This document shows, piece by piece, positions 10,253 to 26,525 of a stretch of 64,000 bases of DNA. The DNA is from an uncultured archaeon. Its GTDB lineage: Archaea > Aenigmatarchaeota > Aenigmatarchaeia > GW2011-AR5. Position 1 is the first letter of the stretch; every line of letters begins with the position of its first letter. The translations under genes were made by a program, and so were the position numbers. Where the stretch lies: the NCBI GenBank assembly GCA_964373695.1, contig CAYJVT010000001.1:37773-101772 (forward strand). The letters run 5' to 3'. Under the pieces are notes generated by a model, which was not told the origin of the DNA, did no database searches, and saw only the letters and a program-made list of their open reading frames with translations.

Positions 10253-10790
10253 CTATGTTGCCTGCAAGACCGAAAGCGATGGAATTATCATTACGCGCTC
10301 GGGATCAACGTTCTTTTCCTCAGGTCCCTTTGTAATCTGGGGCGCAGCAAGATGTCCCTGAATGCGTCACCGACAAGGTATGTTCTTGTCATGAACTCGT
10401 CCTCGCTTATGCCGAAATTTTCTCTCGCCGCCTCCCTGTGCATGACTTTGTCTGGAAATTTCTCGTCAGCGCCGAGCCAGAAATGAAGGTATTTGGCAAT
10501 TTTATGATATGTTACAACTCTGTCAAGATGCTCCTGCGGTATTCCTGTCGAGATGCATGCATGATTTCCGCCTTCTGCCATTCTCCTTAGGCATGCCTCG
10601 GCGTCGTCGTACAGGGGATATATTCTCGAAGTAACTCTTGATACGTATTTTCTTGCCAGTTCTTCCGCCCTTTCAGCCGGAAGACCAAACATTCCCATGA
10701 TTTCCGCATACTGGTGCCCGGCAGGCTTTCCGCCTCCTTCTTTTAAGCTTATCTGCGATATGTGAAAAATGCAAGCTGCAAGGATGGAAG
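10253..10790 (-). pseudogene. Degraded HAD-family hydrolase
   Basis: Has HAD motif II (ISTG) and motif IV (VGDAFRDI), but no motif I DxD: the frame hits a stop at 10792-10794 with no upstream start. A HAD-like tail (...VMIIPSLSVLQAT*) continues in another frame after GDAFRDI. Confidence 0.55.
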
Positions 10791-11704
10791 ACTATCTGTC
10801 TTCTTTGGGATTCAGAGACCTGACAATATATTTGGGCACTGCTGTCAGTATCGGAAGCCAATCGCTTTTGGACGCGAATAGGCATCTTTTTTCAGAGGAT
10901 TTTGAAATGAAACCTGACGGTTCGATGGTTGGCGTTCTTGACAAAACAAGCGATGTGGCCATTGCAGCATATCTTAATTCTACTCCTGCAACTGAAGCCT
11001 GCAGATTCAGGTCAGAGGAAGGGATGGAATTCAGGCAGCCGTCTGAATATGAATATGGGGCAATAATAGACCCTTTGGACGGAAGCATAAATCCACGAAT
11101 AGGCGGGACAAACTTGCACTACATCGGAGTGGGCGGGGCTATTCACCAAAAGCCCGATGATGAACAGGTTGCTGCGGCAGCCTGTCTGCCTTTTGATGAC
11201 GATGCCTTGTACGTGACGGAATGGGGAAAAGGAGTCTATAGAGTAACAAATACTGATGGAGATTTTCAGTCAAGAAAATTGACGGTACCTGAGAAGCCTG
11301 CCCAGACAAATACTTTTATACAGTCAGGATGGCGGACTCCTTACACAAGAAAGGCGGAGGAAGCGCTTCACAGAAGCGGATTTTACGAGGAACTTGACTT
11401 CAACGCAGGCGACACGGTGACTGCCGGTATCTTCCAGACAATTTCCGGTATAAGGGATTACAGACAGGTCGTGATTAATATCGCGGCTACGCATCAGGCG
11501 GATTTTTGCTATCTGTTCCTTAAGGAAACAGGTATGAATCCCATAGCAAACGACGGCAGACCGATACATTCACAGGCATGCGCTATGCTTTCCGTATCGC
11601 CATCATACAGCAAAGATGCAAGTAGGCTTAAAGGAAAATTTGTCGAAGCTTTGCATGATTACAGCGGCCATAACAACACCGGCATGCAGCGCGTCTGCGA
11701 CTAA
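10769..11704 (+). CDS. Inositol monophosphatase/FBPase (FIG) superfamily phosphatase, divergent
   Basis: K.DGSMV..LDK.SD, SEEG and IIDPLDGSIN metal-binding motifs. The C-terminal half is divergent. Alternative start at 10784. Confidence 0.7.
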   Translation: MQAARMEDYLSSLGFRDLTIYLGTAVSIGSQSLLDANRHLFSEDFEMKPDGSMVGVLDKTSDVAIAAYLNSTPATEACRFRSEEGMEFRQPSEYEYGAIIDPLDGSINPRIGGTNLHYIGVGGAIHQKPDDEQVAAAACLPFDDDALYVTEWGKGVYRVTNTDGDFQSRKLTVPEKPAQTNTFIQSGWRTPYTRKAEEALHRSGFYEELDFNAGDTVTAGIFQTISGIRDYRQVVINIAATHQADFCYLFLKETGMNPIANDGRPIHSQACAMLSVSPSYSKDASRLKGKFVEALHDYSGHNNTGMQRVCD

Positions 11705-11734: not shown

Positions 11735-12379
11735 ATGCCAGGTCTCATAATACAGCACCGCGTCAACAATATAGGCGCGCTCCGCAAGATACAACCAAAA
11801 TACGGCGTGGAGATAGACATCCGTCACGACAACAGGACAGGCAGCCTGTATCTGAACCATGACCCGGGAGAGGGCGACGACTTCTTTGAATATTTGGATG
11901 TTTTCGCGGAGCAGGGCAACCGCTTCGCTATATTCAACCCGAAAGAAATCGGCATTGAGCAGCGAATAATAGAAGCTGCCAAGGAACGCGGCATTGAGGA
12001 CTACTTCCTTCTCGACCTTGAATTCCCTTTCATATATCGTGCCGCTCAAGGCGGCGTGCCAAACATCGGCAAACGCATCGCCATCCGCTATTCAGAGGCC
12101 GAGCCTTTGGAGCAGGCAATGCTGCTCAAAGGCAGGTTTGACTGGGTATTCGTCGACGTCAACACTCGCCTGCCGCTCGACAAAAAAATATGCAATATGC
12201 TTGATGAAGCAGGCTTCAGGACCTGCATCGTATGCCCGTCGCGCTGGAAGCGTCCTGATGACATACCAAAGTTCATAGAGCAGATGAAGAAAGAAGGCAT
12301 AAAGATAGACGCTGTCATGACCAAGGACCCGTATGCAGAACAGTGGGAGAACAGCGGCGTTGTGAGGCCGTTCAAATGA
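11735..12379 (+). CDS. GDPD/PI-PLC-like phosphodiesterase-fold protein of the type found in polysaccharide loci
   Basis: IIQHRVNN...YGVEIDIR...LYLNHDP, N.KE, and FLLD motifs. Confidence 0.7.
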   Translation: MPGLIIQHRVNNIGALRKIQPKYGVEIDIRHDNRTGSLYLNHDPGEGDDFFEYLDVFAEQGNRFAIFNPKEIGIEQRIIEAAKERGIEDYFLLDLEFPFIYRAAQGGVPNIGKRIAIRYSEAEPLEQAMLLKGRFDWVFVDVNTRLPLDKKICNMLDEAGFRTCIVCPSRWKRPDDIPKFIEQMKKEGIKIDAVMTKDPYAEQWENSGVVRPFK

Positions 12380-13203
12380 CAAACCTCGTCCCGATGGCAG
12401 GGCTCGGGAAGCGCTTCTCTGACGAAGGCTACAGCTTGCCGAAGCCGCTGATACCAGTGTCAGGCAGGCCGATGATAGTGCAGGCAATAAGGAGCATGCC
12501 TTCTGACAAGGATTGGGTTTTCGTGTGCAGGAAGGAGCACATAGAAAAATATCATGTTGACAAAATCCTCATGAAGGAAGCGCCTTCCTGTAAAATCATT
12601 GCCGTTGACAAAACGACAGAAGGACAGGCATCCACATGCCTCCTCGCAAAGGGCTTCATAGACATGGAAAAGCCGCTTTTCATAGGCGCGTGCGACAACG
12701 GCATGGTATTCGACAGGGAGAAATGGAAAAAGCTTACTTCTGACAAGAGTATAGACGCAATAATTCTGACATTCACGAGGCAGCCCAACATGACAAGAAA
12801 TCCCAAGGCGTGGGGCTGGGTTGTTAATGACAATGGCGTTGTGCGGGATATATCTGTAAAAGTGCCTGTGAGCGACGACCCTTTCAACGACCACGCCGTC
12901 GTGGGCTCGTTCTGGTTCCGCACCGGCCAGGTATTCGTTGACGCGGCGGAGCAGATGATAGCCTCCAACAAGCGCACGAACAACGAGTTCTATGTCGATT
13001 CTGTGCCCATGGAAATCATCGCGAACGGCGGCAAGGTCATGATATTCGACCTGAAGCAGTACATAGGATGGGGAACCCCCATAGACCTCCGCGAGTACGA
13101 GCATTGGGAATCTGCCATATTGAAGGGCGCCTCAGAGCAAGACAGGAAATCCGATTTTTACGGCTTCTGGAAGGATTATTTCACGAAAAACATGATAAGA
13201 TGA
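12376..13203 (+). CDS. Nucleotidyltransferase-fold (GT-A/NTP_transferase) protein, type B
   Basis: MTNLVPMAGLGKRF..GY.LPKPLI, TEGQASTC, CDNG, NNEFYV, WGTP. The start is placed at the ATGA overlap with the upstream stop. Confidence 0.85.
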   Translation: MTNLVPMAGLGKRFSDEGYSLPKPLIPVSGRPMIVQAIRSMPSDKDWVFVCRKEHIEKYHVDKILMKEAPSCKIIAVDKTTEGQASTCLLAKGFIDMEKPLFIGACDNGMVFDREKWKKLTSDKSIDAIILTFTRQPNMTRNPKAWGWVVNDNGVVRDISVKVPVSDDPFNDHAVVGSFWFRTGQVFVDAAEQMIASNKRTNNEFYVDSVPMEIIANGGKVMIFDLKQYIGWGTPIDLREYEHWESAILKGASEQDRKSDFYGFWKDYFTKNMIR

Positions 13204-13246
13204 GCGCCCTGCCAAAAGTTAAATAAACTTGATTTAATGTGGTCAA

Positions 13247-15727
13247 ATGGGGCTCGTGGAAAGGCTTGAAGCGGGCGACAGGATAGGAAGCCAGTTTTCA
13301 AGGTTCGTCGTCATAGGCGGCATAAGCACGCTGATAAACTACGCCGTTTTCCTCGTCCTGTATGCCATGCTTTCCGTAAACTACCTTGTCGCGTCAGCCG
13401 CCGGCTACGTGGTCGGCGCCGTCTTTGGATATTACTTCAACGCCCGCCTGACCTTCAGGAGCAGGCCCGGCCTCAGCGTGATGCCCTATTTTGCCGTATA
13501 CCTGTTCTCGCTGGTGGCGGGTCTTGGGGTGCTGAGGTTCTTCTCTGTGTCGGCCGGCATAGAGCCGCTGTTTTCAAACGTGATTTCAATAGCGTTCACG
13601 GCGGCGGCCAACTTCCTGGGGTGCAGGTATCTGGTTTTCGGCGGCCTGAAAATACCTTCGGTATTCAAAAGTAAGGCATTCCTGTCTGTGCTTGCCTTAA
13701 AGATAATTTTCGCCTTTCTTTTAGCCTCGGACTTCATGACGCAGCTCTTCATACCGTTTGTGCAATATTTCGTCGGGAACCCGCTTTCAAATCCCTACCA
13801 GCATTTCATCGACATAGGCAACGTGAAGGCGTTCCCGTACCCCCCATTCATGCTCCTGGTAGTCTCCGTCCCGTACATGCTGTTTGGCGTCTTCAGCGGG
13901 CCGTTTTTTGAGCTTTTCGCGATGCGTATACCGCTTCTGGCGGCCGACATAGCGATATTCTACGTTCTGTACAGGATTCTGGACGGGAAGAAGGTGATGC
14001 TCCTCTACTGGGCGTCCCCTGTGGTGTTCTACATAACGTATATCCACGGCCAGCTCGACATAATACCCGTGGCGCTCCTGTTCCTGTCAGCCTATTTCCT
14101 CAAAGGCCGTCAGTACGTGAAATCCGCGGCCCTCCTGGGCGCCGGCATCGCGGCGAAGTCGTTTGTCTTCGTGGCGCTTCCTCTTTACCTCGCTTACCTG
14201 ATAAAGAAAAAAATCCGCTGGATAGGGACGGCTGCATTTTTCGCCATTTCCCTGGGGATGTATGCCGCCTTCCTCGTGCCCTTTGTCTTCAGCGAAGGCT
14301 TCGTCCGCATGGTATTCGGCGCCGAGGAGCAGTTCAGGCTGTTCAATCTTTCGGTGGATTTAACCCTTGGCCTGGTCTATTACATAGTTCCTGCAGCCTA
14401 TGCATACATACTTTTCAAGGCATTCTCCTTCAAGAGGATGACGAGTGACATGCTGTTCGTCCTTCTGGGCATGACCCTTACATTTCTTGTCACGTTCATA
14501 CATCCTGAGCGCGGCTGGTATATGTGGGCTATCCCGTTCGTAATCTATTTTCTGGTGAAGGAGAGGATAAGCGTATGGATTTACTCGGCTTTCAATGCCG
14601 CGTACCTCCTTTACTTCCTTTTCGTTCCGGACTCGGACGTGTTCCGCGTATTCCAGGTGGTGTGGCCATCTATATCATCACTGATGACGCCGTACTACAT
14701 GCTGGTTTCCGCAGGAATCCCATCGGACATACTGGTCAACGTCCTGTTCACCGCCATGACGTCGGCGCTGCTTTACCTTACGTACATAATCTACAGGAGG
14801 GGCGTCAGAAGCGGTCTGCTGTTCCAGGAGAAGAACGGAATACCGATAATAGGGATAGGAGGCGACTCAGGCTCCGGCAAGACCACCCTTGCGAAGACTC
14901 TTTCGGAACTGTTTGGCAGGGAGCGCGTGACGACTGTATACGGGGATGACATACACAGATGGGAGAGAAAAGACAGTAACTGGGAAAAGTATACGCATCT
15001 CAACCCTGCCGGAAACAGAATTTACCTGAATTACAGGCAGATAAGGAAGCTGAAGGGCGGCGCCACGATAAGCAGGCCGCATTACGACCACGGCACCGGG
15101 AAATTCACTTCCCCGTCCAGTATAAAGCCGAGAGACATAATAATCTCCGAAGGCCTCCATACGTTTTTCATCAGCGAATCCAATAGCATCTACGAAATAA
15201 AGGCTTTCCTTGACCCCGATCCATCATTAAGAGTTCTGTGGAAGCTCAGGCGTGATATGAAGCTCAGGGGATACTCAAAGAAGGAGGTAATGAAGAAACT
15301 TGGGCAAAGAAGGCGCGACTCAGACAGGTTCATCGCGCCGCAGAAGATGTATGCCGACATGGTGATTTCTTACATGCCTGAAGGGAAGGTGAGCTTTTCC
15401 GACATTGAAAATGACGTTCCTGTAAGGCTGCAGATCGACGTGAAGAACGACATACCGCTCGAAGGTTTTCTGGAGGCTGCGTCCGGAATAAAATCTCTCG
15501 GCATAGAGATGGAATACCATGACCACAGATTCCAGCGCATGGTGTTCAGGGGCGGCGCTTCGGTGGAAGATATTGGAAATCTGCTGAACTCCCTTGACAT
15601 AGATTACGAAACGTACGAAATAGACAGGAACGGAATCAGGGGCGGGTTCGACGGCATTTTACAGGTTATTTTCCTTTATTGCCTCAACGAAAGGCTCAAG
15701 GTGCTGGGTGGTGGCGGCGATGAATGA
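13247..15727 (+). CDS. Fusion protein: GtrA flippase-like domain + GT-C (GT87/PIG-M-like) membrane domain + phosphoribulokinase/uridine kinase-like domain
   Basis: Residues ~10-130 are GtrA-like (QFSRFVVIGGISTLINY...NARLTF...NFLGCRYLVF). Residues ~140-520 are polytopic with FPYPP, RIPLLAAD, HGQLDIIP, AAKSF and PERGWYMW. Residues ~530-826 carry IIGIGGDSGSGKTT, GDDIHRWER, YDHGTGKF, EGLH, WKLRRDMKLRGY and PQKMYAD, which match archaeal/cyanobacterial-type PRK motifs. Confidence 0.85.
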   Translation: MGLVERLEAGDRIGSQFSRFVVIGGISTLINYAVFLVLYAMLSVNYLVASAAGYVVGAVFGYYFNARLTFRSRPGLSVMPYFAVYLFSLVAGLGVLRFFSVSAGIEPLFSNVISIAFTAAANFLGCRYLVFGGLKIPSVFKSKAFLSVLALKIIFAFLLASDFMTQLFIPFVQYFVGNPLSNPYQHFIDIGNVKAFPYPPFMLLVVSVPYMLFGVFSGPFFELFAMRIPLLAADIAIFYVLYRILDGKKVMLLYWASPVVFYITYIHGQLDIIPVALLFLSAYFLKGRQYVKSAALLGAGIAAKSFVFVALPLYLAYLIKKKIRWIGTAAFFAISLGMYAAFLVPFVFSEGFVRMVFGAEEQFRLFNLSVDLTLGLVYYIVPAAYAYILFKAFSFKRMTSDMLFVLLGMTLTFLVTFIHPERGWYMWAIPFVIYFLVKERISVWIYSAFNAAYLLYFLFVPDSDVFRVFQVVWPSISSLMTPYYMLVSAGIPSDILVNVLFTAMTSALLYLTYIIYRRGVRSGLLFQEKNGIPIIGIGGDSGSGKTTLAKTLSELFGRERVTTVYGDDIHRWERKDSNWEKYTHLNPAGNRIYLNYRQIRKLKGGATISRPHYDHGTGKFTSPSSIKPRDIIISEGLHTFFISESNSIYEIKAFLDPDPSLRVLWKLRRDMKLRGYSKKEVMKKLGQRRRDSDRFIAPQKMYADMVISYMPEGKVSFSDIENDVPVRLQIDVKNDIPLEGFLEAASGIKSLGIEMEYHDHRFQRMVFRGGASVEDIGNLLNSLDIDYETYEIDRNGIRGGFDGILQVIFLYCLNERLKVLGGGGDE

Positions 15728-16652
15728 ACTTGAATGGCTCGTAAAGACCTCAGGGAATATCGGAAGCGACCCAAGGCTTGTCCAGGGCACCGGGGGCAAC
15801 CTGTCAGTGAAGCTCGGCGGAAAGATGATGATAAAATCCTCCGGGGTCAGAATGGATGCTGTCAGTAACGGCAGCGGATGGAGCGTCGTCGACCACGGGA
15901 AGATAGCCGGCATATATTCAAGAAGATTAACAGAGGAAGACGCCGGGAGGGTTTTGGAAGAAGCCATTATCGAAGGCTCAAAGCCCTCGATAGAGACGGG
16001 GTTTCACTCGTTTCTTGAAAAATACGTCATTCACGTCCACCCTGTCCATCTTAATGTCATTCTGTGCTGTGAAAAAAGCGCTGAAATTATGTCCGAAATT
16101 TTCTCGCCGGACGAATTCACCTGGGTTCCTTATACCAAGGTAGGCCACAGACTGGCAGCAGAGATAAAAGACCGCGGCCATGACAGAGGGATTATATTCC
16201 TGGAAAATCACGGTGTGATAATATCATCAGACAGCCCCAAGGACTGCACAGAAATTCTTTCGTCTGTCGAGGAGCGTGTAAGAAAATACCTAGAGTCAAA
16301 AATCCGGCCGTTCGAGCCGTTTTCATATACGATACCAAGGGAAGCGGAAGGCTGCTATGTCAGCACTTCCGAAGCGGTTCTGCGCGGCAGGTCGGGAATT
16401 TTCTCCGGCTTTCTTTTCCCTGACGCCGTCGTCTTCTCCTTGCCGGAAAAGATAAAAGCTGACGCCAAGGGCGTAACGTATTTAATGGATTATGCGAATG
16501 CTGTAAACGTTGATGGCGTGCTGGCGGCTCATGCATACATAAAGGAAAATGCCGCAAAGCTCGGCATGCTGAAATACCTCACGGAAATGGAAATCAGCGA
16601 CATAATAGGCATGGAATCTGAAAAATACAGGAGAAAGATGGTTGGATTATGA
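15720..16652 (+). CDS. Class II aldolase/adducin family protein (RhaD N-terminal-like)
   Basis: LVQGTGGNLSVK, IKSSG, PSIETGFH, VIHVHP and LENHG zinc/phosphate motifs. ATG at 15720 overlaps the upstream gene end. Confidence 0.85.
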   Translation: MNELEWLVKTSGNIGSDPRLVQGTGGNLSVKLGGKMMIKSSGVRMDAVSNGSGWSVVDHGKIAGIYSRRLTEEDAGRVLEEAIIEGSKPSIETGFHSFLEKYVIHVHPVHLNVILCCEKSAEIMSEIFSPDEFTWVPYTKVGHRLAAEIKDRGHDRGIIFLENHGVIISSDSPKDCTEILSSVEERVRKYLESKIRPFEPFSYTIPREAEGCYVSTSEAVLRGRSGIFSGFLFPDAVVFSLPEKIKADAKGVTYLMDYANAVNVDGVLAAHAYIKENAAKLGMLKYLTEMEISDIIGMESEKYRRKMVGL

Positions 16653-17518
16653 AAGTGATAATACCGGCGGCCGGGATTGGCCAGAGATTTCTGGATGCCG
16701 GATATAAAAAACCGAAGCCGCTGATACTCGCCGACGGCATCCCGTTTGCCAGGCATGTGGCAAATATGTTTTCCCCTAGCGATGAGTTTGTTTTCGTGTG
16801 CAATGAAGAGCACCTGAAAACGACGGAGATGCGCAGCGTCGTCGAAAGCGTCGGCCGCATAGTTTCCATAAAGCCCCACTCCCTCGGCCCTGTGCACAGC
16901 GTTCTTGCCGCCTCTGACCTCATAGAGGAAGATGAGCCTGTGATGGTCTGCTACTGCGATTTCTACGAATGGTGGGATTATCAGCATTTCAAAGATACAG
17001 TGAAAGAAAGCGGATGCGACGCGGCCGTCACCGCGTACACCGGATTCCACCCCCACCTTCTGGGCACCGGCCTATACGCCTCGATGAAAGTGGAAAACGG
17101 CTGGATGCTGGAATGCAGGGAGAAGCACAGCTTTACGGAGGACAAGATGGACAGCTTCCACCAGACTGGAAAGTTTTACTTCTCCACCGGAAGCATTTTG
17201 AAAAGGTTCTTCAGTGATATAAAGGAAAGGAACCTCGTAGTGAACGGTGAATTCTACATCAGCGTCGTGACGCAGGCGATGGTGGAGGCGGGCCTGAAGG
17301 TGATGGTATATCCGGTGGAGCATTTCCTCCAGTGGGGCACGCCGCAGGAGCTGGAGGAATACACGCAGTGGTCAGGGTACTTCTCGGGCAAGAACGGGTT
17401 GCCGGAGGCTTTCGACGAAAGGAGCTTAGGATACTGGGAATCGTTCTTCAGGAAATGCCCGTGGCATCCGTACGGAAAAGGTGGGGCTCATGATAAAGGG
17501 GATTATGCTAGACCTTGA
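16649..17518 (+). CDS. Nucleotidyltransferase-fold protein, type A
   Basis: MKVIIPAAGIGQRF..AGYKKPKPLI, GPVHSV, YCDF, GFHPHLL, NGEFYIS, QWGTPQELEEY. Confidence 0.85.
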   Translation: MKVIIPAAGIGQRFLDAGYKKPKPLILADGIPFARHVANMFSPSDEFVFVCNEEHLKTTEMRSVVESVGRIVSIKPHSLGPVHSVLAASDLIEEDEPVMVCYCDFYEWWDYQHFKDTVKESGCDAAVTAYTGFHPHLLGTGLYASMKVENGWMLECREKHSFTEDKMDSFHQTGKFYFSTGSILKRFFSDIKERNLVVNGEFYISVVTQAMVEAGLKVMVYPVEHFLQWGTPQELEEYTQWSGYFSGKNGLPEAFDERSLGYWESFFRKCPWHPYGKGGAHDKGDYARP

Positions 17519-18149
17519 CAACACCCTCTATGACTATGAAACCTGCAATGAATACGCAAAATACGAGCTTTTCCGCAAAATCGAGGGCGATATGGGCGTT
17601 GCCGGCGCCGAAAAGGCGTTCGACGAAGCAAGAAAATCCGTGAAGAAGTCTCTTGAGAAGACGGCGGCCGGCCATTCGCGCCTTCTTTACATAGGGAAGG
17701 CGCTAGAGGCCCTTGGCATAAGCGCACTCCATTCGGTGCGCTATCATGATTTTTTCTGGGAAAAATATTTCGAGAAAATGGAGCTTTTCGAGAGCGTCGC
17801 GGATTTTCTCGAGCATGCAAAAAATTCCGGGATGAAAATCTGCATAGTCACGGACCTCACCGCCGAAATCCAGATGAAGAAAATAATCCACCTCGGGATA
17901 GAAGGCTATGTAGATTTTATCGTGTCGTCTGAGGAGGTGGGTGAAGATAAGCCGTCATCGAAGGTGTTCTGCATGGCCCTAGAGAAGATGGGTATGAAAA
18001 AGGAGGATGTTGTTATGGTGGGGGACGACGAGGAAAAGGACATAAAAGGCGCGGAAAATGCAGGCATCCGTGCGGTGAAGGCGGACCCTTCCATCTTTGC
18101 ATCCGGGAGGCTCGTGGAAATCCTGCAGGCGGCGGATAGGTTTAAGTAA
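17490..18149 (+). CDS. HAD-family phosphatase
   Basis: MLDLDNTLY (motif I), IVTD, EDKP, MVGDDEEKDI. An AGGTGG RBS precedes the ATG at 17490. Confidence 0.9.
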   Translation: MIKGIMLDLDNTLYDYETCNEYAKYELFRKIEGDMGVAGAEKAFDEARKSVKKSLEKTAAGHSRLLYIGKALEALGISALHSVRYHDFFWEKYFEKMELFESVADFLEHAKNSGMKICIVTDLTAEIQMKKIIHLGIEGYVDFIVSSEEVGEDKPSSKVFCMALEKMGMKKEDVVMVGDDEEKDIKGAENAGIRAVKADPSIFASGRLVEILQAADRFK

Positions 18150-18171
18150 ATTTTTTGCGTATCTTTGGAAT

Positions 18172-18801
18172 ATGATACTGCTCCCGAAGCTCAGGCTCGG
18201 CGTAACCGCATTTTCGGGCCCAGAATCCGTGGAAGCGATAAGTAAAATGGGGGTCAGGCATGTGAACATCCCTTCATCTCTCCTGAATGCTGACAACGCC
18301 GGTGCCTACATGGAGAACGCCAAAAAATTCAATATCACAATCGAGGCCGTGTGCACCGGCGGCTCGGATAATTTCGCGGAGCTGGCGGCAGCCGTGGGAG
18401 CGAAGGCACTGTGCATAGCCTTGGATGACATAAGCCTTATCGGAGCCGTTTCGGACAGCGCCAAGAGCACAGGACTTAATTATCTGATATGGGAACCTGC
18501 AGGCATCGGTATGGAAGACTGTAAAAGGACTCTGACAGACATCAGCAAGACGTCTGCCATTCCTGTGAAGCTCGCACTCTCTCTCGAGTCGGATAACATC
18601 TACGAGATGTCGAGAATTATAGGAAAGGACGCCATGATAATCATAAGGAGGAAGGAAGACATTGCAATACTCGGGAAGGTTATCGACAGCCTGAGAACGG
18701 GTGGCTCTAGGGAAAACATGATAATGCTGGATATGCCTTCGGCAGCCATTGACAGCCTCGAGACCTCGGTGGACTACTGTAGGAGTTTCGTCAGAGAGTG
18801 A
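18172..18801 (+). CDS. Degenerate, shortened TIM-barrel paralog of the downstream EryC-like gene
   Basis: LNYLIWEP, IPVKLAL, GKDAMII and SVDYCRSFVRE align with CLTFEH, IPILLCL, GKDAPIL and SVNFWKPYADE of 18798..19706. Probable start is the ATG at 18172. Confidence 0.55.
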   Translation: MILLPKLRLGVTAFSGPESVEAISKMGVRHVNIPSSLLNADNAGAYMENAKKFNITIEAVCTGGSDNFAELAAAVGAKALCIALDDISLIGAVSDSAKSTGLNYLIWEPAGIGMEDCKRTLTDISKTSAIPVKLALSLESDNIYEMSRIIGKDAMIIIRRKEDIAILGKVIDSLRTGGSRENMIMLDMPSAAIDSLETSVDYCRSFVRE

Positions 18802-19706
18802 AATTAATGACAAAAATCAAATTCGGCACTGACCTTGACTTTGCGGTTAACAGGTATCCGGAGCCTGAGGAATGGGCACGCGTCCTGTCGGAAGAGCTTG
18901 GCGTCAGGCATGCCCAGTTCCGCTCCGACCTCATCCAGCCGCATTTTTCCGATGAAATAATAAATGAGCAGGCTGAAAGGGTAAGAGCCGCATGCAAGGA
19001 ATACGGAATCAGGCTGGAGCATGCGTTCACCAGCCAGAGATGGGCCTACTGCGGCCATCCTGACGCAAAAATAAGGGAATACTGGCACTGGTGGCTGAAG
19101 CGCTATTCTGATATTGCTGCAAAAGTCGGTGCGCGGAGCGCAGGAAGCCGCCTCGGCATATACAGCATGAAAGACCTTTCAACAAGGAAGGAGTTCATTC
19201 TAAAGGAGATAATGAGTTTCTGGAAGAAATGGGCATCTTATTCGAAGAAGGCCGGCCTTGACTGCCTGACATTCGAGCATCTCTCAATCCCGAGGGAGCT
19301 TGCCGACACGATAGAAGGCGCAAGACAGGTGCTTGACATGGCAAAGGGCTCCGAAATTCCAATCCTGTTGTGCCTTGACACCGACCAAGGAAATGTGATG
19401 TCCGGAAACCCGAAGGATGGCGACCCGTACGAATGGCTCAGGGAATTCGGCAAAGACGCGCCTATCCTGCACCTCAAACAGAGAATAAGAGGCAACGCCT
19501 CGTCTGGCAAGCCGTTCACGCCCGAAAACAACAAGGAAGGAATGATAATACCGGAGAAAGTCGTGGAAGCACTTGAAGAAAGCGGAGCGAAGGAAGTCAA
19601 CCTTTACCTTGAGCCTTCATTCCGCGAACGCCTGCCGCAGGACAACAACGTAATCAGTGACCTCAGGCAGTCGGTCAACTTCTGGAAGCCTTACGCCGAC
19701 GAATAG
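18798..19706 (+). CDS. EryC-like sugar-phosphate 3-epimerase (xylose-isomerase/AP-endonuclease-2 TIM barrel)
   Basis: VNRYPEP, GHPD..IR.YW..W, FEHLSIPRE, DTDQG.V.S.NP.D.DPY.W, ILHLKQ, PFT...N.EG.I.PE, LE.SFRER.P.D, SVNFW. This follows the pattern of Brucella EryC (D-erythrulose-1-P 3-epimerase) as recalled. Confidence 0.75.
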   Translation: MKLMTKIKFGTDLDFAVNRYPEPEEWARVLSEELGVRHAQFRSDLIQPHFSDEIINEQAERVRAACKEYGIRLEHAFTSQRWAYCGHPDAKIREYWHWWLKRYSDIAAKVGARSAGSRLGIYSMKDLSTRKEFILKEIMSFWKKWASYSKKAGLDCLTFEHLSIPRELADTIEGARQVLDMAKGSEIPILLCLDTDQGNVMSGNPKDGDPYEWLREFGKDAPILHLKQRIRGNASSGKPFTPENNKEGMIIPEKVVEALEESGAKEVNLYLEPSFRERLPQDNNVISDLRQSVNFWKPYADE

Positions 19707-19734
19707 CTCAAAGCCTATGAAACGTCTGTCATGC

Positions 19735-20307
19735 TCACTCCAGATTCGCGTGGTATTTCCACAGCTCTTCGCCGGGAATGCTTTTCCTGCCTTGTATCAT
19801 CAAAGATACTATGTCCCCGAATACGTGGAGTGACTGGTCAAAGAGCGTGCTCATGGGCTGTATAGACTTCACGCCTTCCTGCATATTGGTCTTCGTCGGG
19901 CATTTCAGGTGGACGCACATGTCTGCAAGAGATTTTATTGTGGATTGCTCCGAAGATGTAATGAGAGCCAGCTTGGCGTTGTGCTTCTTCGCTATCTGCG
20001 ATATTGTGACAGGAACCTTGCTCTCGCCTGAGCCGCTGGCGACTATGAGGAGATCGCGCGGCGTTATGGCCTTTTCTGCGACGGAGCCGACGACGTGGCA
20101 GTCTATGCCCAAATGGCTTAAGCGCTTTGCCATGCACTGCAAGGAAAGGAATACGCGGCCGACTGCTATGAAGAATACTTTCTCGGCTCTCAGTATTTCT
20201 TCCACTAGCGCATCCACTTCGTTTGTATCGACCATTTTCGTTACGCTGTATATCTCGTCCAGGACAGACACTGTGAACTTGCTGTATTCGTGCTCCATAA
20301 ACATCAC
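19735..20307 (-). CDS. SIS-domain sugar-phosphate isomerase, 6-phospho-3-hexuloisomerase (HxlB/PHI)-like
   Basis: VGRVFL...AKRL.HLG, ASGSGES, QPMSTLFDQS and a C-terminal HANLE. Confidence 0.85.
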   Translation of the reverse strand: MMFMEHEYSKFTVSVLDEIYSVTKMVDTNEVDALVEEILRAEKVFFIAVGRVFLSLQCMAKRLSHLGIDCHVVGSVAEKAITPRDLLIVASGSGESKVPVTISQIAKKHNAKLALITSSEQSTIKSLADMCVHLKCPTKTNMQEGVKSIQPMSTLFDQSLHVFGDIVSLMIQGRKSIPGEELWKYHANLE

Positions 20308-21344
20308 GGTTCCACGACGACCTTCAGGCCGTCACGGTTTTTTACTGTTTCAAACGCCTTTAAAATATCGTCAAGTGGGAATTTGTGAGTTATGATATTT
20401 TTCGTCTTTATGTCTCCGTTTGCAAGCAGCTCCAGGGCCTTCCTGTGGTGATCTTTTGTGGAGGAAAATGAGCCGCCGACGGCGAACTGCCTGTAATGCA
20501 TGTAGTTGTTCTGGAATGTCACGGTGTCGTCGGTGCCTTTCGGCACGCCGCCAAAAAGGTTCACGAAACCGCCCTTTGCCACAGCCTGGATGCAGGCGCG
20601 ATGCGCATTTATGTCACTGCACGCCGAAACAACGATATCATATCCCCTTCCGCCTGTCAGCTCTATGGACTCCTCAAGGAAGTCGTTGTTCTCCGAATGG
20701 ATATAATGGTCGGCGCCTGTAGGCCTTGACATCTCAAGCCTTTTCTCATTCCTGTCAACAAGAACAGCCATCGAGGCGCCCATTATCTGTGCCGTATTTA
20801 TCATGAGATTTCCTATCGGCCCAGCCCCTATCACGAGCACACTTTTCCCTTCTTTCATGCCGGCGAATTCCAGCCCGTTGTATACGCATGCGAGCGGCTC
20901 TGCAAAGGACGCCTCGACAAAGTCGAGGTTCTTCGGCATGAAATTAATCGGCCCGCGTTCCGCCGCTTCCTTCGGCAAAAGCAGATATTCAGCGAAGCCT
21001 CCCGGGACGGTCGAGCCTATGGAGATAACATTCTGGCAAAGCATGTCCAGGCCCCTCCGGCATTCCTCACAGTTTCTGCATGATATCTCATTACCCATGG
21101 CAAGCCTGTCTCCAATGCTGAAATTCTCCACGCCTTTTCCAATTTCAGTAACAGTGCCGGCGATTTCGTGCCCCATTACAAAGGGGAATTTCTTTATCCT
21201 GTCGCCGTACTCGTAGAACCTGAGGTCTGAGCCGCAGACGCCGCATGCGCCAACCTTAAGGAGTATCTCACCTTCTTTCGGGACAGGCGTTTCGACATCC
21301 CCGACCCTCATATTTTTGGGGCTTTCAAGAAGGGCGGCTTTCAT
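20304..21344 (-). CDS. Zn-dependent polyol/sugar-alcohol dehydrogenase (MDR)
   Basis: GVCGSD, MGHE, CRNCEECRRGLDMLC, GGFAEY, EPLAC, IGAGPIG. Confidence 0.9.
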   Translation of the reverse strand: MKAALLESPKNMRVGDVETPVPKEGEILLKVGACGVCGSDLRFYEYGDRIKKFPFVMGHEIAGTVTEIGKGVENFSIGDRLAMGNEISCRNCEECRRGLDMLCQNVISIGSTVPGGFAEYLLLPKEAAERGPINFMPKNLDFVEASFAEPLACVYNGLEFAGMKEGKSVLVIGAGPIGNLMINTAQIMGASMAVLVDRNEKRLEMSRPTGADHYIHSENNDFLEESIELTGGRGYDIVVSACSDINAHRACIQAVAKGGFVNLFGGVPKGTDDTVTFQNNYMHYRQFAVGGSFSSTKDHHRKALELLANGDIKTKNIITHKFPLDDILKAFETVKNRDGLKVVVEP

Positions 21345-21465
21345 GCTAGTCCTAAATCAAAAGTCTTTATAACAGTATCGTATGAAAAAAACGTCGTTTT
21401 GTTGCATTGTTTATGAAGAATAGAACGGTTTCGGTTTTAAAAGCGTTTTTCCTTAATACAAATAA

Positions 21466-23073
21466 ATGAAGGTTATCATACCGATGGCCGGGAATAACGA
21501 GGACTTCCGCCGGGAAGGGATGGATGAAGTAAAGCACATGATGAATATAGACGGCAAGAGCATGATAGAGCACGTATGCGGCATGTTCCCCCAGAACAGC
21601 AGCTTCATATTTCTCTGCAGGAAGGCGCATCTGGATAATTCAGGCCTTATGGAACATCTCCAGAAAATAGTCAAGAATTCCACGATAATAGTAGTTGAAA
21701 ACGACACGAGAGGGCCGGTGGAAACTGTGTTGCTCGCTGACGGGGCTGTGAGAGATGATGAGGAAGTAATAATAGCCCATTCCGACGCCATATCGGACTG
21801 GGATTTCAGCGTGTTCCTGAAGAAAATAAAGGACAGAAAAGCCGATGGCGCCCTTTCAACGTTCATAGGCTTTCATCCGACACACCTCAACGGGGTGCGT
21901 TATGCCTCCATATCAACAGACGACAACGACTATGTAGTCAGTATAAAGGAAAAGGAGCTCATAACAAAGGGCTACATTGAAAACTACACTTCCGCCGGTG
22001 TGTATTATTTTTCAAGGTGGGATGTGTTCAAGAAATACGCTGAAAGGATGATAGAAAACGTCGAACACGAGATGTTTTACATAAGCCTGGTATACAACGA
22101 GATGTTGAAAGACGGCCTGAAGGTCGTGCCTTTCGAGGCTGAGGGCCTAATTTACTGGGGTGAACCGCAGAATCTGAAGGAGTATGTGTTCTGGTCGGAA
22201 TATTTTGCGTCCCTGACCAAGCAGGGCAAGGAAAGGGGAATGTACGATATGGTAAATCTCATACCTTCCGCAGGCCGCGGAAAGAGATTTGCAGACGCTG
22301 GGTACAAGATTCCCAAGCCGTTCATAGATGTTCTTGGCGAGCATATGATAGTGAAATGTGCAAAATCGCTTCCAAAAACGGCCAGATACGTCTTCGTCTG
22401 CCTAAGGCAGCATGTAGAAAATTTCGGGCTCGACGAAATTCTGAAAAAAAACTTCCCGGAATGCGATATTGTCATAGTAAATGACTATACAGACGGCATG
22501 GCACGCTCGTGTCTCATGGCCAAGCATCTTCTGGACAAGGACAAGCCTGTTTTCGTCTCGTCATGCGACTACAGCTTCGTCTACAACGACGAAAATCTCA
22601 GGAGGCTGATTGAGGACGAGGACCCTGATGCAGTAGTGTGGACATTCAGGGGGTATCCGGATGCCAGAATAGCACCAATGGCATACGCCTACATGGTAGT
22701 GGAGAACGGCCGTGTCAAAAGAATCTCGGAAAAGGTTCCGATAAGCGACGAGCCGCACAAGGATCCAATAGTGCAGGGCATTTTCTACTTCAAGACAGCC
22801 AAGCTTCTGATAGATTGCATAAACGAGATGATAGAAAAAAACATAACCGTCAACGGCGAGTTCTACGTCGGAACCGCCATAAACCATCTCATAGAGAAGG
22901 GTATGAAAGTCATGCCATTTGAGCTGGATAAATACATATGCTGGGGAACGCCGCACGACCTGCTTGTGTTCCAGTTCTGGGAAAACTACTTCATAAATAA
23001 TCCGAATCACCCATATAAAAGGATTGTACCTAAATCGGAATTAAGCCAACTGAAATTGGCTAAGATGTGGTAA
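21466..23073 (+). CDS. Tandem double nucleotidyltransferase-fold protein (type A + type B domains)
   Basis: Domain 1 (MKVIIPMAG...GFHPTHL...WGEPQNLKEY) resembles 16649..17518. Domain 2, from ~22249 (VNLIPSAGRGKRF...PKP...NGEFYV...WGTP), resembles 12376..13203. Confidence 0.85.
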   Translation: MKVIIPMAGNNEDFRREGMDEVKHMMNIDGKSMIEHVCGMFPQNSSFIFLCRKAHLDNSGLMEHLQKIVKNSTIIVVENDTRGPVETVLLADGAVRDDEEVIIAHSDAISDWDFSVFLKKIKDRKADGALSTFIGFHPTHLNGVRYASISTDDNDYVVSIKEKELITKGYIENYTSAGVYYFSRWDVFKKYAERMIENVEHEMFYISLVYNEMLKDGLKVVPFEAEGLIYWGEPQNLKEYVFWSEYFASLTKQGKERGMYDMVNLIPSAGRGKRFADAGYKIPKPFIDVLGEHMIVKCAKSLPKTARYVFVCLRQHVENFGLDEILKKNFPECDIVIVNDYTDGMARSCLMAKHLLDKDKPVFVSSCDYSFVYNDENLRRLIEDEDPDAVVWTFRGYPDARIAPMAYAYMVVENGRVKRISEKVPISDEPHKDPIVQGIFYFKTAKLLIDCINEMIEKNITVNGEFYVGTAINHLIEKGMKVMPFELDKYICWGTPHDLLVFQFWENYFINNPNHPYKRIVPKSELSQLKLAKMW

Positions 23074-24110
23074 AAATGAGCTCGATGGATGCTGTCGTTG
23101 TTGAGGGGATAGGGAATATAGAATGCAAGAAAATACCTTTTCCTGAATGCGGCGACAACGACGTCATCATACTTACCGAAAGGTCCGGGATATGCAGCAC
23201 CGACGTCATAAGGTCGATGAAAACCGGATTCTACCGCTACCCAATCGTGCCAGGCCATGAATTCTGCGGGGTTGTGGTCAAGAAAGGGAAGAACGTCGCC
23301 GGCGTTGATATAGAGGATAACGTGGTCGTGTACCCCCTCATACCGTGCAAGAAATGCGTTCCGTGCATGGCAGGACACCACAACCTGTGCGACACGTACG
23401 ATTTTCTGGGCTCGAGATCCAACGGAGGGCACGCCGAATACGTCAAGTGTCCCTCAGAAAACCTGCTGAAAATACCGAAAAACATAAGCTTCGATGAAGC
23501 CTGTATGGCGGAGCCGTCGTCTGTCGGTCTTCATGCCAGCCGAGTTTCCGGAAAGGCTGTGAATGTGGTCGTAATGGGCCTTGGCCCAATAGGCTTCTTT
23601 ACGGCCCAATGGGCAAAGATTCTGGGAGCGAACCATATTTTTGGTGTGGACAGACACGACCAGAGATTCAAAATCTCCAGAAAGGTCGGCATCCACGAAT
23701 TCATAGACTCCAGGGACCAGGAAATTACAAAGGCAATAAAGGAGCTTACGGACGGTCAGGGAGCCGACGTGATATTTGAGTGCTCGGGCTCCATAGACCT
23801 TCAGAGGGAAGCTATCTCATCGGCCGCGAAGCGTGGCAGGATTATTCTCCTTGGAAACCCGACTAACGACCTTGTTTTGAACAAGGAAACTTATTCGATG
23901 GTGCTCAGAAGGGAACTGAGTATAATAGGCTCATGGAGCTCGCTTATCTCGACCGACGAATGGAGCCAGTCCCTGGAGCACATGTCGAGCAAAAAGATAA
24001 ACGCAATGCCGGTGATAACCCATAATTTTCACGTGAGCGAGGCCAAGAACGTCATAGAGGACATGCATCACAAGAGATTCGAGTTCTCCAAAGTGGTCTT
24101 CCGGATGTAG
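23067..24110 (+). CDS. Zn-dependent polyol(-phosphate) dehydrogenase (GatD/sorbitol DH-like)
   Basis: GICSTD, PGHEF, CKKCVPCMAGHHNLC, GGHAEY, GLGPIG. Confidence 0.9.
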   Translation: MVKMSSMDAVVVEGIGNIECKKIPFPECGDNDVIILTERSGICSTDVIRSMKTGFYRYPIVPGHEFCGVVVKKGKNVAGVDIEDNVVVYPLIPCKKCVPCMAGHHNLCDTYDFLGSRSNGGHAEYVKCPSENLLKIPKNISFDEACMAEPSSVGLHASRVSGKAVNVVVMGLGPIGFFTAQWAKILGANHIFGVDRHDQRFKISRKVGIHEFIDSRDQEITKAIKELTDGQGADVIFECSGSIDLQREAISSAAKRGRIILLGNPTNDLVLNKETYSMVLRRELSIIGSWSSLISTDEWSQSLEHMSSKKINAMPVITHNFHVSEAKNVIEDMHHKRFEFSKVVFRM

Positions 24111-24148
24111 TATGAATTTAAAAGTCATAGCATCAATATTTCTCTTGG

Positions 24149-24841
24149 ATGACAAAGCTTTCCGTTATACTCCCGTGCTACAACGAGGGGGAGAACATAC
24201 CGCTCATTCTTGAGAGATATTCGCAGGTTGCGAAGAGGGTGCCTATGGAGCTCGTCTTGGTCGATAACGGCTCTACGGACGGGACTGAAGGCATCCTCAG
24301 AAAGGAGCTCCCGAAATACAAGTTCGCAAGGTCTGTGAAAGTCGGAAAGAACATAGGGTACGGCTTCGGCATCCTTTCTGGCCTCAGAACCGCCAAGAGC
24401 GGGTATCTGGCGTTCTCCCATGCCGACATGCAGTGCGACCCCAGAGACATAGAGAAGGGGTGGAAAATTCTCATATCATCCGTCTCCCCGGAAAGGACGC
24501 TGGTAAAGGGCAACCGCGAGGGGAGGGCGAACTTCTTCACGTCATGCTTCCATGCGGCATCCTCTGCCGTCCTTATGAAGCATTTCGACGACGTCAACGG
24601 CCAGCCGAAGATATTCCATAAAGACCTTCTGGGAATGATGAAGAAGCCGCCGAACGGGTTTTCTCTGGACCTTTACGTTCAGTACACCGCCCTCAGGAAC
24701 GGATTTGCCGTCAGAAGCTTCCCGGTGAAATTCAAGAGAAGGCTTCATGGGAAGTCCAGCTGGGCGACCGGCATACGCTCAAGAGCGAAGACGATAGCCG
24801 GAATGTCCGCATATATTCTGAAGCTCAGGATGGGGCTTTAG
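24149..24841 (+). CDS. GT2 polyprenol-phosphate glycosyltransferase (DPM1-like)
   Basis: VILPCYNEGENI, VDNGSTDGT, NIGYGFGI, HADMQCDP, DVNGQPK, R.HGKS. Confidence 0.85.
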   Translation: MTKLSVILPCYNEGENIPLILERYSQVAKRVPMELVLVDNGSTDGTEGILRKELPKYKFARSVKVGKNIGYGFGILSGLRTAKSGYLAFSHADMQCDPRDIEKGWKILISSVSPERTLVKGNREGRANFFTSCFHAASSAVLMKHFDDVNGQPKIFHKDLLGMMKKPPNGFSLDLYVQYTALRNGFAVRSFPVKFKRRLHGKSSWATGIRSRAKTIAGMSAYILKLRMGL

Positions 24842-24872
24842 CATTTAAGAATCGTGCTAAAATAGTGTCTTT

Positions 24873-25583
24873 ATGTCCAGACCAGAGCTTTCCGTGGTTG
24901 TCCCGTTTTACAACGAGCAGGACAACGCAAAAACAGTTCTATCCGGCCTCGGCAACGCCCTGGATGATATAAATTACGAAATCATAGCCGTCAACAACGG
25001 CTCTACAGACAATACGGCGTCCGTGCTCCGTGAGGTGAAAAACAGCAGAATAATAATCGTGACAGTGGAAAAAAACATCGGATTCGGCTACGGCATCAGA
25101 AAGGGCCTGGAATCGGCGAAAGGCAAATATCTCGGCTACATGTGGGGGGACAACCAGATTTCCGCCGGCGTCGTCGCGGAGATTTACAGGAAGCTCGCCA
25201 AAGAGGGGCTGGATTTGTGCAAGATAAGGCGCGCCGCAAGGGATTACGGATTTTTCAGGAAGCTTGAATCCGCCGCATACAACAGGATATTTCTGGCGCT
25301 GTTTTTTGGGAAGATAAGCAACGACATAAACGGAAGCCCCAAGATAATGAAGAGGGCGCTTTACGAAAGGCTGGGCCTGGAGTCAAACGACTGGTTCATC
25401 GACACGGAACTCATGGTGAAAGTGAAGGTCCTGGGCGGCAGGGTTGGCGAAGTGAAGGCTGCCTACAACAAGAGAAGCAAGGGAAAGTCCAAAGTAAAGT
25501 TCTACGTCATGATGGAATTCCTCTCAAATATCCTCAGATTCAGGTTCAGCGGGCTCAAGAAATTTAAAGACTCCGTAGACTAG
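24873..25583 (+). CDS. GT2 polyprenol-phosphate glycosyltransferase (DPM1-like), tandem paralog
   Basis: VVPFYNEQDN, VNNGSTDNT, NIGFGYGI, MWGDNQ (in place of DxD), DINGSPK, R.KGKS. Confidence 0.85.
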   Translation: MSRPELSVVVPFYNEQDNAKTVLSGLGNALDDINYEIIAVNNGSTDNTASVLREVKNSRIIIVTVEKNIGFGYGIRKGLESAKGKYLGYMWGDNQISAGVVAEIYRKLAKEGLDLCKIRRAARDYGFFRKLESAAYNRIFLALFFGKISNDINGSPKIMKRALYERLGLESNDWFIDTELMVKVKVLGGRVGEVKAAYNKRSKGKSKVKFYVMMEFLSNILRFRFSGLKKFKDSVD

Positions 25584-25589
25584 TCAAGA

Positions 25590-26525
25590 ATGTCATCGCT
25601 CGGCGGCGCCAGTGTTCTTGTGACAGGTGGCAACGGCTTCATAGGCTCGCACCTCGTGGAAAGACTTGCCGATGAAGGCGCTGCAGTTCACGTTCTTTCC
25701 AGAAGCGACGTTAATATCAGGGGTATGGGAAATGTCATATTCCATAAAGCCGACATCAGGGACTACGGGGCCGTCAAAAACGTCGTAAACGAAGCGGAGC
25801 CAAAAAAAATCTTCCATCTTGCCGCAATGGTCAACCTCAGCAGGGAAATGAAGGACCTGAAGCCTGTGATGGAAACGAAAATAAACGGGACGCTGAACCT
25901 GCTGAATGCTCTTGACGGCATCGATTATGACTGCTTTATCAACACGGGAACGTGTGAGGAATACGGCTCAAACCACCCGCCTTTCAGGGAGGACATGACT
26001 CCAAGGCCCATATCCCACTATTCGGCCGCCAATGCGTCCGTGACTTCCATATGCAGGATGCTGTACGAAACAAACGCTCTGCCGATTCTTACTCTGCGGC
26101 AGTTCACATGCTACGGCCCGGGCCAGAAGCCCAGCATGCTGATACCCTACGTCATAAGCTCCGCGATGACGGGGAATGACATCAGGCTGACGAAGGGGGA
26201 GCAGAAAAGGGATTTCAACTACGTGGATGACGCCGTCGAATCATTCATGAAAGCTTCGGCAGAGAAGCGAGCCATAGGCGAGGTGATAAACATAGGGACC
26301 GGCGAGAGCCGTAGAATAACGGATGTCGTGGCGTCAATACTTTCCATTACAAATAGTTCCGCGAAGCCGCTGTTCGGGGCCATTCCATACAGGAAACCTG
26401 AGATATGGGAAATAAGGGCCGACATCTCAAAGGCGGAGCGCATCCTGGGATGGAGACCTGTAACCGGCATGGAAGACGGGTTGAAAAGGACTGTGGAATG
26501 GTACAGAAAATCTATTTCCTCGTGA
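25590..26525 (+). CDS. Extended SDR NDP-sugar epimerase/reductase
   Basis: VTGGNGFIG, FHLAA, TCEEYG, YGPGQ, RDFNYVDD. The catalytic YxxxK reads YSAAN. Confidence 0.85.
   Translation: MSSLGGASVLVTGGNGFIGSHLVERLADEGAAVHVLSRSDVNIRGMGNVIFHKADIRDYGAVKNVVNEAEPKKIFHLAAMVNLSREMKDLKPVMETKINGTLNLLNALDGIDYDCFINTGTCEEYGSNHPPFREDMTPRPISHYSAANASVTSICRMLYETNALPILTLRQFTCYGPGQKPSMLIPYVISSAMTGNDIRLTKGEQKRDFNYVDDAVESFMKASAEKRAIGEVINIGTGESRRITDVVASILSITNSSAKPLFGAIPYRKPEIWEIRADISKAERILGWRPVTGMEDGLKRTVEWYRKSISS

Follow-up and report, generated by a model that had tools for sequence, protein, structure and literature searches.

Two adjacent probable sugar-activation modules, one carrying a phosphoribulokinase fused to GtrA and GT-C membrane domains, in an uncultured archaeon

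What could a complete phosphoribulokinase (PRK) be doing at the end of a membrane glycosyltransferase in a small archaeal genome, and do the genes packed around it form a single pathway? The question is raised by a 64,000-nucleotide stretch of DNA, here called the window (assembly GCA_964373695.1, contig CAYJVT010000001.1, positions 37,773 to 101,772), from an uncultured groundwater archaeon of the Aenigmatarchaeota with a genome of 1.02 Mb, 91% complete. Between 10.7 and 25.6 kb of the window the open reading frames are closely packed and mostly overlap. An earlier note on this DNA had read 11735-25583 as one cassette in which central sugar phosphates are remodelled, activated by a nucleotide, loaded onto a lipid and exported onto a surface glycan as a ketose or polyol-phosphate substituent. 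The block is better described as composite: two probable sugar-activation modules, A (11735-18149) and B (18097-24841), each conserved on its own, feed one back end and would yield a rare lipid-carried surface sugar, a reading given a probability of about 0.6. It builds on the identities of the domains, their folds, their conserved catalytic residues, two distinct sets of synteny and a series of gene fusions.

The domains named in that note are all present at the coordinates it gave, as confirmed by Pfam and NCBIfam matches and by AlphaFold2 (AF2) models. The genes of module A, in which NTase stands for nucleotidyltransferase and RuBP for ribulose-1,5-bisphosphate, are the following.

g02, 11735..12379, + strand: GDPD/PI-PLC-like TIM-barrel phosphodiesterase of 214 aa, of module A lineage and the single copy of the block
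g03, 12343..13203 (likely start 12376), + strand: nucleotidyltransferase of type A (NTase-A; PF00483, 25.4 bits)
g04, 13247..15727, + strand: fusion of 826 aa joining GtrA (13280-13645), GT-C (13649-14821) and a complete PRK (14825-15712)
g05, 15708..16652, + strand: class II aldolase-family enzyme with a C-terminal extension of about 110 aa (PF00596, 63.7 bits)
g06, 16649..17518, + strand: nucleotidyltransferase of type B (NTase-B; PF12804, 48 bits)
g07, 17481..18149, + strand: HAD phosphatase, whose best named relative is the haloarchaeal RuBP 5-phosphatase

A scan using one genome per species detected relatives of the g04 fusion in 496 species genomes or more. Their surroundings were counted at the best 80 loci from other genomes, partner genes being scored up to 10 kb from the fusion. 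Represented among these loci are DPANN archaea, candidate phyla radiation (CPR) bacteria, Flavobacteriaceae/Bacteroidia, Rickettsiales, Gammaproteobacteria, Omnitrophota, Rokubacteria, Melainabacteria and a spirochaete symbiont. The aldolase is present at 71 of them, both NTase types or their fusion at 76, the GDPD-like gene at 64, the HAD gene at 57 and a GT2 gene of the type of g14 (listed below) at 66; GtrA, GT2 and GT-C occur together at 66/80. The same set is carried by an E. coli IncR plasmid and by a plasmid of Azospirillum brasilense, where it adjoins wzm/wzt, gmd and fcl. When 5,426 complete E. coli genomes were searched at the DNA level, the plasmid cassette turned up solely on two plasmids of 33 kb. 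Neither the TIM barrels, nor HxlB, nor either of the two dehydrogenases stood beside the PRK fusion at any of the 80 loci. These genes belong to module B, which is made up as follows.

g08, 18097..18801, + strand: decayed paralogue (234 aa) of the g09 TIM barrel
g09, 18798..19706, + strand: xylose-isomerase-like TIM-barrel sugar isomerase/epimerase, the signature gene of the module (PF01261, 38.3 bits, cut-off 31.1)
g10, 19735..20307, - strand: 6-phospho-3-hexuloisomerase (HxlB; TIGR03127, 167.8 bits, cut-off 160)
g11, 20304..21344, - strand: Zn-dependent MDR dehydrogenase with ADH_N and ADH_zinc_N domains
g12, 21466..23073, + strand: fused NTase-B::NTase-A
g13, 23067..24110, + strand: Zn-dependent MDR dehydrogenase, best named relative galactitol-1-phosphate 5-dehydrogenase
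g14, 24149..24841, + strand: DPM1/GtrB/ArnC-like GT2 of module B lineage, the block's single cassette-type GT2 (PF00535, 62.2 bits)

Homologues of g09 were found solely in PRK-free relatives and at 37 metagenome loci with module B genes. The relatives are five other genomes of the archaeon's family, three of which were searched for the fusion and all lacked it; in these five, g09 is accompanied by both dehydrogenases, HxlB, the NTase-NTase fusion, a g14-type GT2 and a GDPD-like gene of their own. The 37 metagenome loci repeat module B in the order dehydrogenase, GT2, GDPD-like gene, polytopic membrane protein, dehydrogenase, Rpe-family epimerase, TIM barrel and NTase-NTase, and no PRK, aldolase or HAD gene was found at them. 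Among the 19 long loci from which gene frequencies were taken, g11 and g13 each have a counterpart at 16, the g12-type fusion is present at 11 and the g14-type GT2 at 10. HxlB lies inside module B only in the lineage of the window's archaeon (L091, L094, L099), the remaining B modules having the Rpe-family epimerase in its place.

Since the two sets keep their synteny separately, the window holds modules A and B side by side rather than one cassette. The co-occurrence in other genomes that had been fixed beforehand as a test thus failed for the whole block and was found for two subsets of it. The fourteen genes are not one conserved set; what the earlier note had observed is confirmed, and its interpretation is supported in part. 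Chance adjacency of the block genes was also considered and rejected on the synteny counts, with gene sets that recur across phyla.

The fusion at the heart of module A was modelled by AF2 from 67 homologues, the set in which the invariance of its residues was also read, with a pLDDT of 92.7 and three resolved domains. Residues 12-133 form a four-helix GtrA module (PF04138, 67.4 bits) similar to the transmembrane domain of the dolichyl phosphate mannose synthase DPMS (5mlz, Z 17.8, rmsd 1.4 Å). Residues 135-525 adopt a GT-C fold, which resembles GPI-MT-I (9wno, Z 27.9), ALG3 (26.3), ALG6 (24.6), PimE (19.6) and ArnT (18.9), so that in the model this domain is structurally nearest to transferases using Dol-P-Man or Dol-P-Glc (Dol-P, dolichyl phosphate); D234, D271 and K304 are invariant in it. 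The GT87 family of Pfam gave no match to the window fusion at E<=0.01 and did match the homologues P0008 (26.1 bits, cut-off 25) and P0273 (39 bits). Homologues of about 830 aa carry GtrA, and the bacterial forms of about 700 aa are without it. The closest public copy, at 92% identity, is in a groundwater metagenome-assembled genome (MAG) of Candidatus Aenigmatarchaeota.

Residues 527-822 constitute a complete PRK, including its C-terminal sheet (PF00485, 132.5 bits, cut-off 22; 9qko, VIA Z 30.5, rmsd 2.4 Å over 281 residues; Foldseek TMt 0.77), which shares about 40% identity with cyanobacterial and archaeal PRKs and scores 205.4 bits against NCBIfam PRK07429, under the cut-off of 236. In CrPRK, residues R64, Y103, H105, R159, D160 and R164 are reported to take part in catalysis or in binding the phosphate of ribulose-5-phosphate (Ru5P) (bioRxiv 10.1101/422709). 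Their counterparts by motif, R574, Y613, H615, R669, D670 and R674, are invariant in the 67 homologues. The domain therefore shares with the archaeal and cyanobacterial enzymes, such as that of M. hungatei (5b3f, Z 27; Kono et al. 2017, PMC5241800), the full fold and the reported Ru5P-site residues. Unlike these, it is fused to a membrane part, lies in a glycan cassette and is also found in organisms free of RuBisCO.

The soluble partners of module A likewise keep the residues of active enzymes. In the aldolase g05, N31, S45-G46, S94, E96, H109, H111 and H168 are invariant among 51 homologues, and the family thus retains three Zn-binding histidines, the catalytic glutamate and the phosphate pocket, residues being mapped to FucA by motif; a search of the ESM Atlas returned nothing beyond "class II aldolase". 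The HAD enzyme g07 retains the four motifs of its superfamily, with D11, D13, K157, D182 and D187 conserved, and RuBP 5-phosphatase (NF053830) is its top-scoring named family at 182 bits (E 1.3e-53), short of the 330 that its cut-off demands. The NTases g03 and g06 are 42% and 32% identical to the C-half and the N-half of g12, respectively, and the g12-type fusion stands in for the two separate genes at many module A loci. The loops PMAGxGSRF of NTase-A and PM(S/T)GxGxRF of NTase-B are conserved across their families, both types retaining G-x-G-x-R-F with the N-half of the window's g12 as the only exception. Sequence searches of the PDB with both NTases gave marginal matches only.

The phosphodiesterase g02 has no Pfam match, and PF03009 (GDPD) was unmatched even at E<=1. 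Its model (pLDDT 97) is nevertheless a TIM barrel whose closest Foldseek relatives are GDPDs (TMq 0.63-0.70), spider phospholipase D/sphingomyelinase D and phosphatidylinositol-specific phospholipase C (PI-PLC). H8, R9, E26, D28 and H42, the catalytic set HR...ExD...H(D), are conserved in its family, which comprises 1,188 clusters at 50% identity (E<=1e-10).

In module B, g09 has E160, D194 and E272 invariant. The earlier note had called it an EryC-like 3-epimerase with a degenerate copy, of which the TIM barrel and the weak paralogue stand; the EryC-like label is not supported. The copy, g08, resembles g09 at 22.5% identity (BLASTP E 1.9e-9); it has no Pfam match, and no homologue of it was found at the 80 loci. 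Its assignment as an Rpe-family epimerase was rejected. The dehydrogenase g11 overlaps g10 by 4 nt. For g13, NF007642 scores 217 bits, below its cut-off of 550. Matches of g14 in the PDB include ArnC, DPMS and GtrB. No match to HxlA (TIGR03128) was found in the 91%-complete genome, which makes the HxlB of the window an orphan, and neither RpiA nor Rpe was found there.

What both module types have in common is the NTase-A/NTase-B pair, the GDPD-like enzyme and the DPM1/GtrB-like GT2. The A and B labels interleave, with 3-5 label changes, in the trees of the GDPD-like enzyme and of the GT2; g02 groups with A-type copies (support 100/98) and g14 with B-type copies (support 97-99). With a single GDPD-like gene of A lineage and a single GT2 of B lineage in the block, the two modules appear to share both enzymes. 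Fusions found elsewhere tie the same parts together: aldolase-HAD, aldolase-GDPD, NTaseB-NTaseA-GT2, NTaseA-GT2, GDPD-NTase(-NTase), GT2-GDPD, 2H-phosphoesterase-GDPD, GDPD-IMPase, GDPD-GT-C-PRK and GDPD-GT61, the last joining GDPD-like domains to GT61 glycosyltransferases in P0143, P0163 and P0246.

Viral copies separate the soluble from the membrane part. Among 45 viral contigs with the GDPD-like gene (giant-virus MAGs and large phages, L137-L181), 39 have NTase-NTase, 36 the aldolase, 35 a free PRK without the membrane part and 26 the HAD gene, and GT2, GtrA and GT-C were found beside the GDPD-like gene on none of the 45. The six soluble domains would thus be self-contained, most simply as a route to a nucleotide sugar, to which the lipid-linked part is, judging by these gene contents, a cellular addition. 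Taken together, the fusions and the viral copies suggest that the GDPD-like enzyme and both NTases act after the chain of PRK, HAD and aldolase, and the GT2 after those.

Two kinds of neighbour accompany many cassettes. A second polytopic protein, with 7-11 predicted helices and no Pfam match, is usual in each cassette of either type (L083:13224-14984; L084:3637-5280; L122:6732-8276, 514 aa; L112:2702-4714), and further ones lie next to the cassettes of E. coli (586 aa) and Azospirillum (547 aa). Compared with each other and with the membrane domain of the fusion, they gave no BLAST similarity, and hhalign gave a probability of 1%. A TylF-like O-methyltransferase is found in or beside the cassette at 17/80 loci (e.g. 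L004:15065-15793), which suggests that the cassette sugar is sometimes methylated.

How these parts would work together, from the substrates and the order of steps to the carrier and the acceptor, is predicted here from gene content and family membership. In module A, the PRK domain would phosphorylate Ru5P, or a near-identical pentulose-5-phosphate, to a 1,5-bisphosphate, the HAD phosphatase would strip the 5-phosphate, and the class II aldolase-family enzyme, with its Zn site intact, would reshape the resulting ketose-1-phosphate, more likely by epimerisation than by cleavage. The simplest chain would be Ru5P to RuBP to ribulose-1-phosphate (Ru1P) to the product of the aldolase-family enzyme. 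RpiB is encoded in the genome (C4:8018-8443), which makes a supply of Ru5P possible. In module B, HxlB, the two Zn-dehydrogenases and the TIM-barrel isomerase would turn fructose-6-phosphate into a second sugar phosphate or one of the same kind. The two differing and apparently active NTases and the GDPD/PI-PLC-like phosphodiesterase would then yield a nucleotide-activated sugar, which the DPM1/GtrB-type GT2 would transfer to dolichyl phosphate; the GtrA domain would flip the lipid-linked sugar, and a GT-C protein, either the PRK-fused domain or one of the neighbouring polytopic proteins, would add it to a surface glycan. This logic of remodelling, activation, lipid loading, flipping and transfer had been proposed in the earlier note, and synteny and fusions back it. 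Of its two DPM1-like synthases, g14 is of the cassette type and g15 (described below) belongs to neither module. The S-layer glycan as acceptor and Dol-P as carrier, which that note had also named, are putative.

The closest precedent for the membrane part is the Gtr type of system (GtrA/GtrB/GtrC, ArnC-ArnT, CsbB-GtcA-YfhO and the Dol-P-Man GT-C enzymes), in which GtrA, GT2 and GT-C are likewise encoded in one operon. Here, however, the GT-C protein has a complete phosphoribulokinase fused to it, the cassette supplies a six-domain sugar-activation pathway of its own rather than drawing on a housekeeping UDP-sugar, and many cassettes include the second, variable polytopic protein. The literature search found no relevant paper on a fusion of PRK to GtrA or to a transmembrane glycosyltransferase, or on such a cassette, and none on a characterised pathway with this gene set, in line with what the earlier note had said.

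Several observations weigh against the composite reading. The fusion is present in one of 40 related genomes, of the same genus, and missing from 39, which makes module A a mobile accessory trait. HxlB is the sole enzyme above an NCBIfam equivalog cut-off, the other family assignments all lying below theirs. The glycine loop in the N-half of g12 is degenerate (PMAGNNEDF). The polytopic neighbours may be acceptor-specific transferases, which would make the role of the PRK-fused GT-C domain less clear. Finally, the phosphate of the PRK product is non-anomeric, and an ordinary NTase and GT2 need extra chemistry to obtain a glycosyl donor from it.

One form of the composite reading would supply that chemistry. 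E. coli O-antigens include D-xylulofuranose (O95, O97) and D-ribofuranose, for which neither genes nor nucleotide donors are known (PMC7685785), L-xylulofuranose side chains decorate the D-rhamnan of Y. enterocolitica O:10, where no xylulose synthesis genes have been assigned (PMC11380512), and some chlorovirus N-glycans contain xylulofuranose (PMC9614988). The soluble enzymes could, tentatively and with the odds well against it, provide the gene route that is lacking for nucleotide-activated ketofuranoses, xylulofuranose among them. Both front ends would then reach a 2-ketose 1-phosphate, module A by moving the phosphate (Ru5P to RuBP to Ru1P, followed by an aldolase-type epimerisation) and module B by moving the carbonyl through reduction and re-oxidation by its two dehydrogenases. 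One NTase would make a nucleoside diphosphate (NDP)-1-ketose; the PI-PLC/GDPD-like enzyme would let the anomeric hydroxyl attack, giving a 1,2-cyclic phosphate and then a 2-phosphate; and the other NTase would make the NDP-2-ketofuranose, a true donor. Such a walk of the phosphate to the anomeric carbon would give every conserved domain a role and account for the presence of two active NTase types, as well as for the rare fusions of the GDPD-like protein to 2H-cyclic-phosphodiesterase and IMPase domains. A ketofuranose, and xylulose in particular, is a speculative product.

The 2H phosphoesterases themselves are scarce. One follows the cassette GT2 in another Aenigmatarchaeota MAG (L013:15458-16006), the only such neighbour among the 80 module A loci, and none was found in the window, at the module B loci or at the viral loci; P0124 and P0151 are 2H::GDPD-like fusions. 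This rarity lends the cyclic-phosphate step weak support.

Among other explanations, the one that survives best is a pathway of the CDP-alditol kind, similar to that of teichoic acids, in which the dehydrogenases would reduce ketose phosphates or NDP-ketoses, the NTases would make CDP-ribitol, CDP-arabinitol or a CDP-hexitol, and a polyol phosphate would be placed onto the glycan. TarI/TarJ, AbpA/AbpB and the CDP-6-glucitol enzymes of C. jejuni pair a dehydrogenase with an NTase on ketose phosphates. Module B shares with these CDP-alditol and CDP-ketose pathways a Zn-dehydrogenase paired with a nucleotidyltransferase, the genes g12 and g13 overlapping by 7 nt, and the NTase domains give a weak IspD signal. 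That signal is far below the cut-off, however (TIGR00453, 18.8 bits for g12, cut-off 181), and the NTases are an uncharacterised family arranged as an A/B pair. Module A has the same back end of NTase, GDPD-like enzyme and GT2 without any reductase. Moreover, NTases are fused to GT2 enzymes of glycosyl type, and the modules showed no TagF-, LicD- or CDP-alcohol-type transferase, and thus no polyol-phosphate transferase. The polyol-phosphate product that the earlier note had allowed for consequently fits poorly, and the explanation as a whole is unlikely.

The NDP-heptose pathway suggests a different product, since it follows the same logic from a sugar monophosphate through a kinase-made bisphosphate and a HAD phosphatase to a nucleotidyltransferase. 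By analogy, the PRK-like kinase would add an anomeric phosphate to ribose-5-phosphate or arabinose-5-phosphate, and, after the HAD step, an NDP-ribofuranose or NDP-arabinofuranose would be available to the GT2. The order kinase, HAD, NTase is that of GmhA, HldE (or HddA), GmhB and HldE (or HddC), the GT2 would receive a true anomeric donor, and the genes for nucleotide-activated ribofuranose in E. coli are unknown (PMC7685785). Against it, the kinase belongs to the PRK family and not to the ribokinase or GHMP families, is about 40% identical to true PRKs and retains every Ru5P residue, and it would phosphorylate the non-anomeric C1. The class II aldolase-family enzyme, the GDPD-like phosphodiesterase and the second NTase, which the heptose pathway does not have, would be left idle. 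Bacterial ribofuranose is, in addition, reportedly derived from phosphoribosyl pyrophosphate. An aldopentofuranose is therefore a doubtful product.

The haloarchaeal non-carboxylating pentose bisphosphate pathway, where a HAD RuBP phosphatase precedes a class II Ru1P aldolase (Sato et al. 2022, PMC9700705), has the same pair of enzymes downstream of RuBP. It differs in being catabolic, in receiving RuBP from a ribose-1,5-bisphosphate (R15P) isomerase, in ending with dihydroxyacetone phosphate (DHAP) and glycolaldehyde, and in having no NTase, GT2 or membrane parts. An IF-2B-family protein of the genome (C2:337-1020) is a candidate R15P isomerase, and RuBP could also reach the HAD enzyme through nucleotide salvage. 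That PRK simply feeds RuBisCO, or that PRK, HAD and aldolase break pentoses down into DHAP and glycolaldehyde with only a coincidental link to glycans, is very improbable: the genome does encode a RuBisCO large subunit (C8:6276-7205) and that IF-2B-family protein, the nearest named relative of the HAD enzyme is RuBP 5-phosphatase, the aldolase active site is intact and HxlB is part of the methanogen PRK/RuBisCO pathway (PMC5241800), but five cassette-bearing genomes are without RuBisCO, an E. coli plasmid carries the cassette, PRK is covalently joined to GtrA and GT-C, aldolase and HAD are fused to GDPD-like domains and share operons with NTases and GT2 across phyla, and HxlA was not found in the genome.

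Two genes at the edges of the block stand outside the conserved modules.

g01, 10769..11704, + strand: divergent phosphatase of the IMPase/FBPase superfamily, a possible accessory outside the span of the earlier note (NF009321, weak, E 4.4e-5)
g15 (GT2b), 24873..25583, + strand: second GT2, in neither conserved module

The first, which ends 30 nt before g02, aligns through its SEEG and DPLDGS motifs with the IMPase part of the GDPD-IMPase fusion P0128. Although no counterpart was conserved beside the cassette at the 80 loci, the occurrence of that fusion elsewhere suggests that g01 may supply the pathway with an additional phosphatase. For g15, weak and scattered matches only were obtained at other loci. 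It is packed against an SDR epimerase/dehydratase gene (25590-26525), likewise outside either module, and the two may serve a CDP-hexose operon that begins at 28043.

For the biology of these organisms, the unexpected point is that a Calvin-cycle kinase would serve glycan biosynthesis, joined to a GT-C transferase. The cassette is very widespread: at least 496 species have it, plasmids of E. coli and Azospirillum carry it, and so do giant viruses and large phages. The existence of a PRK-free module with the same back end narrows what that back end may do. The cassette makes the question of which genes lead to pentofuranoses and pentulofuranoses directly testable. As to the archaeon itself, a genome-reduced member of the DPANN would be devoting about 13 kb to two horizontally acquired routes to a rare surface sugar.

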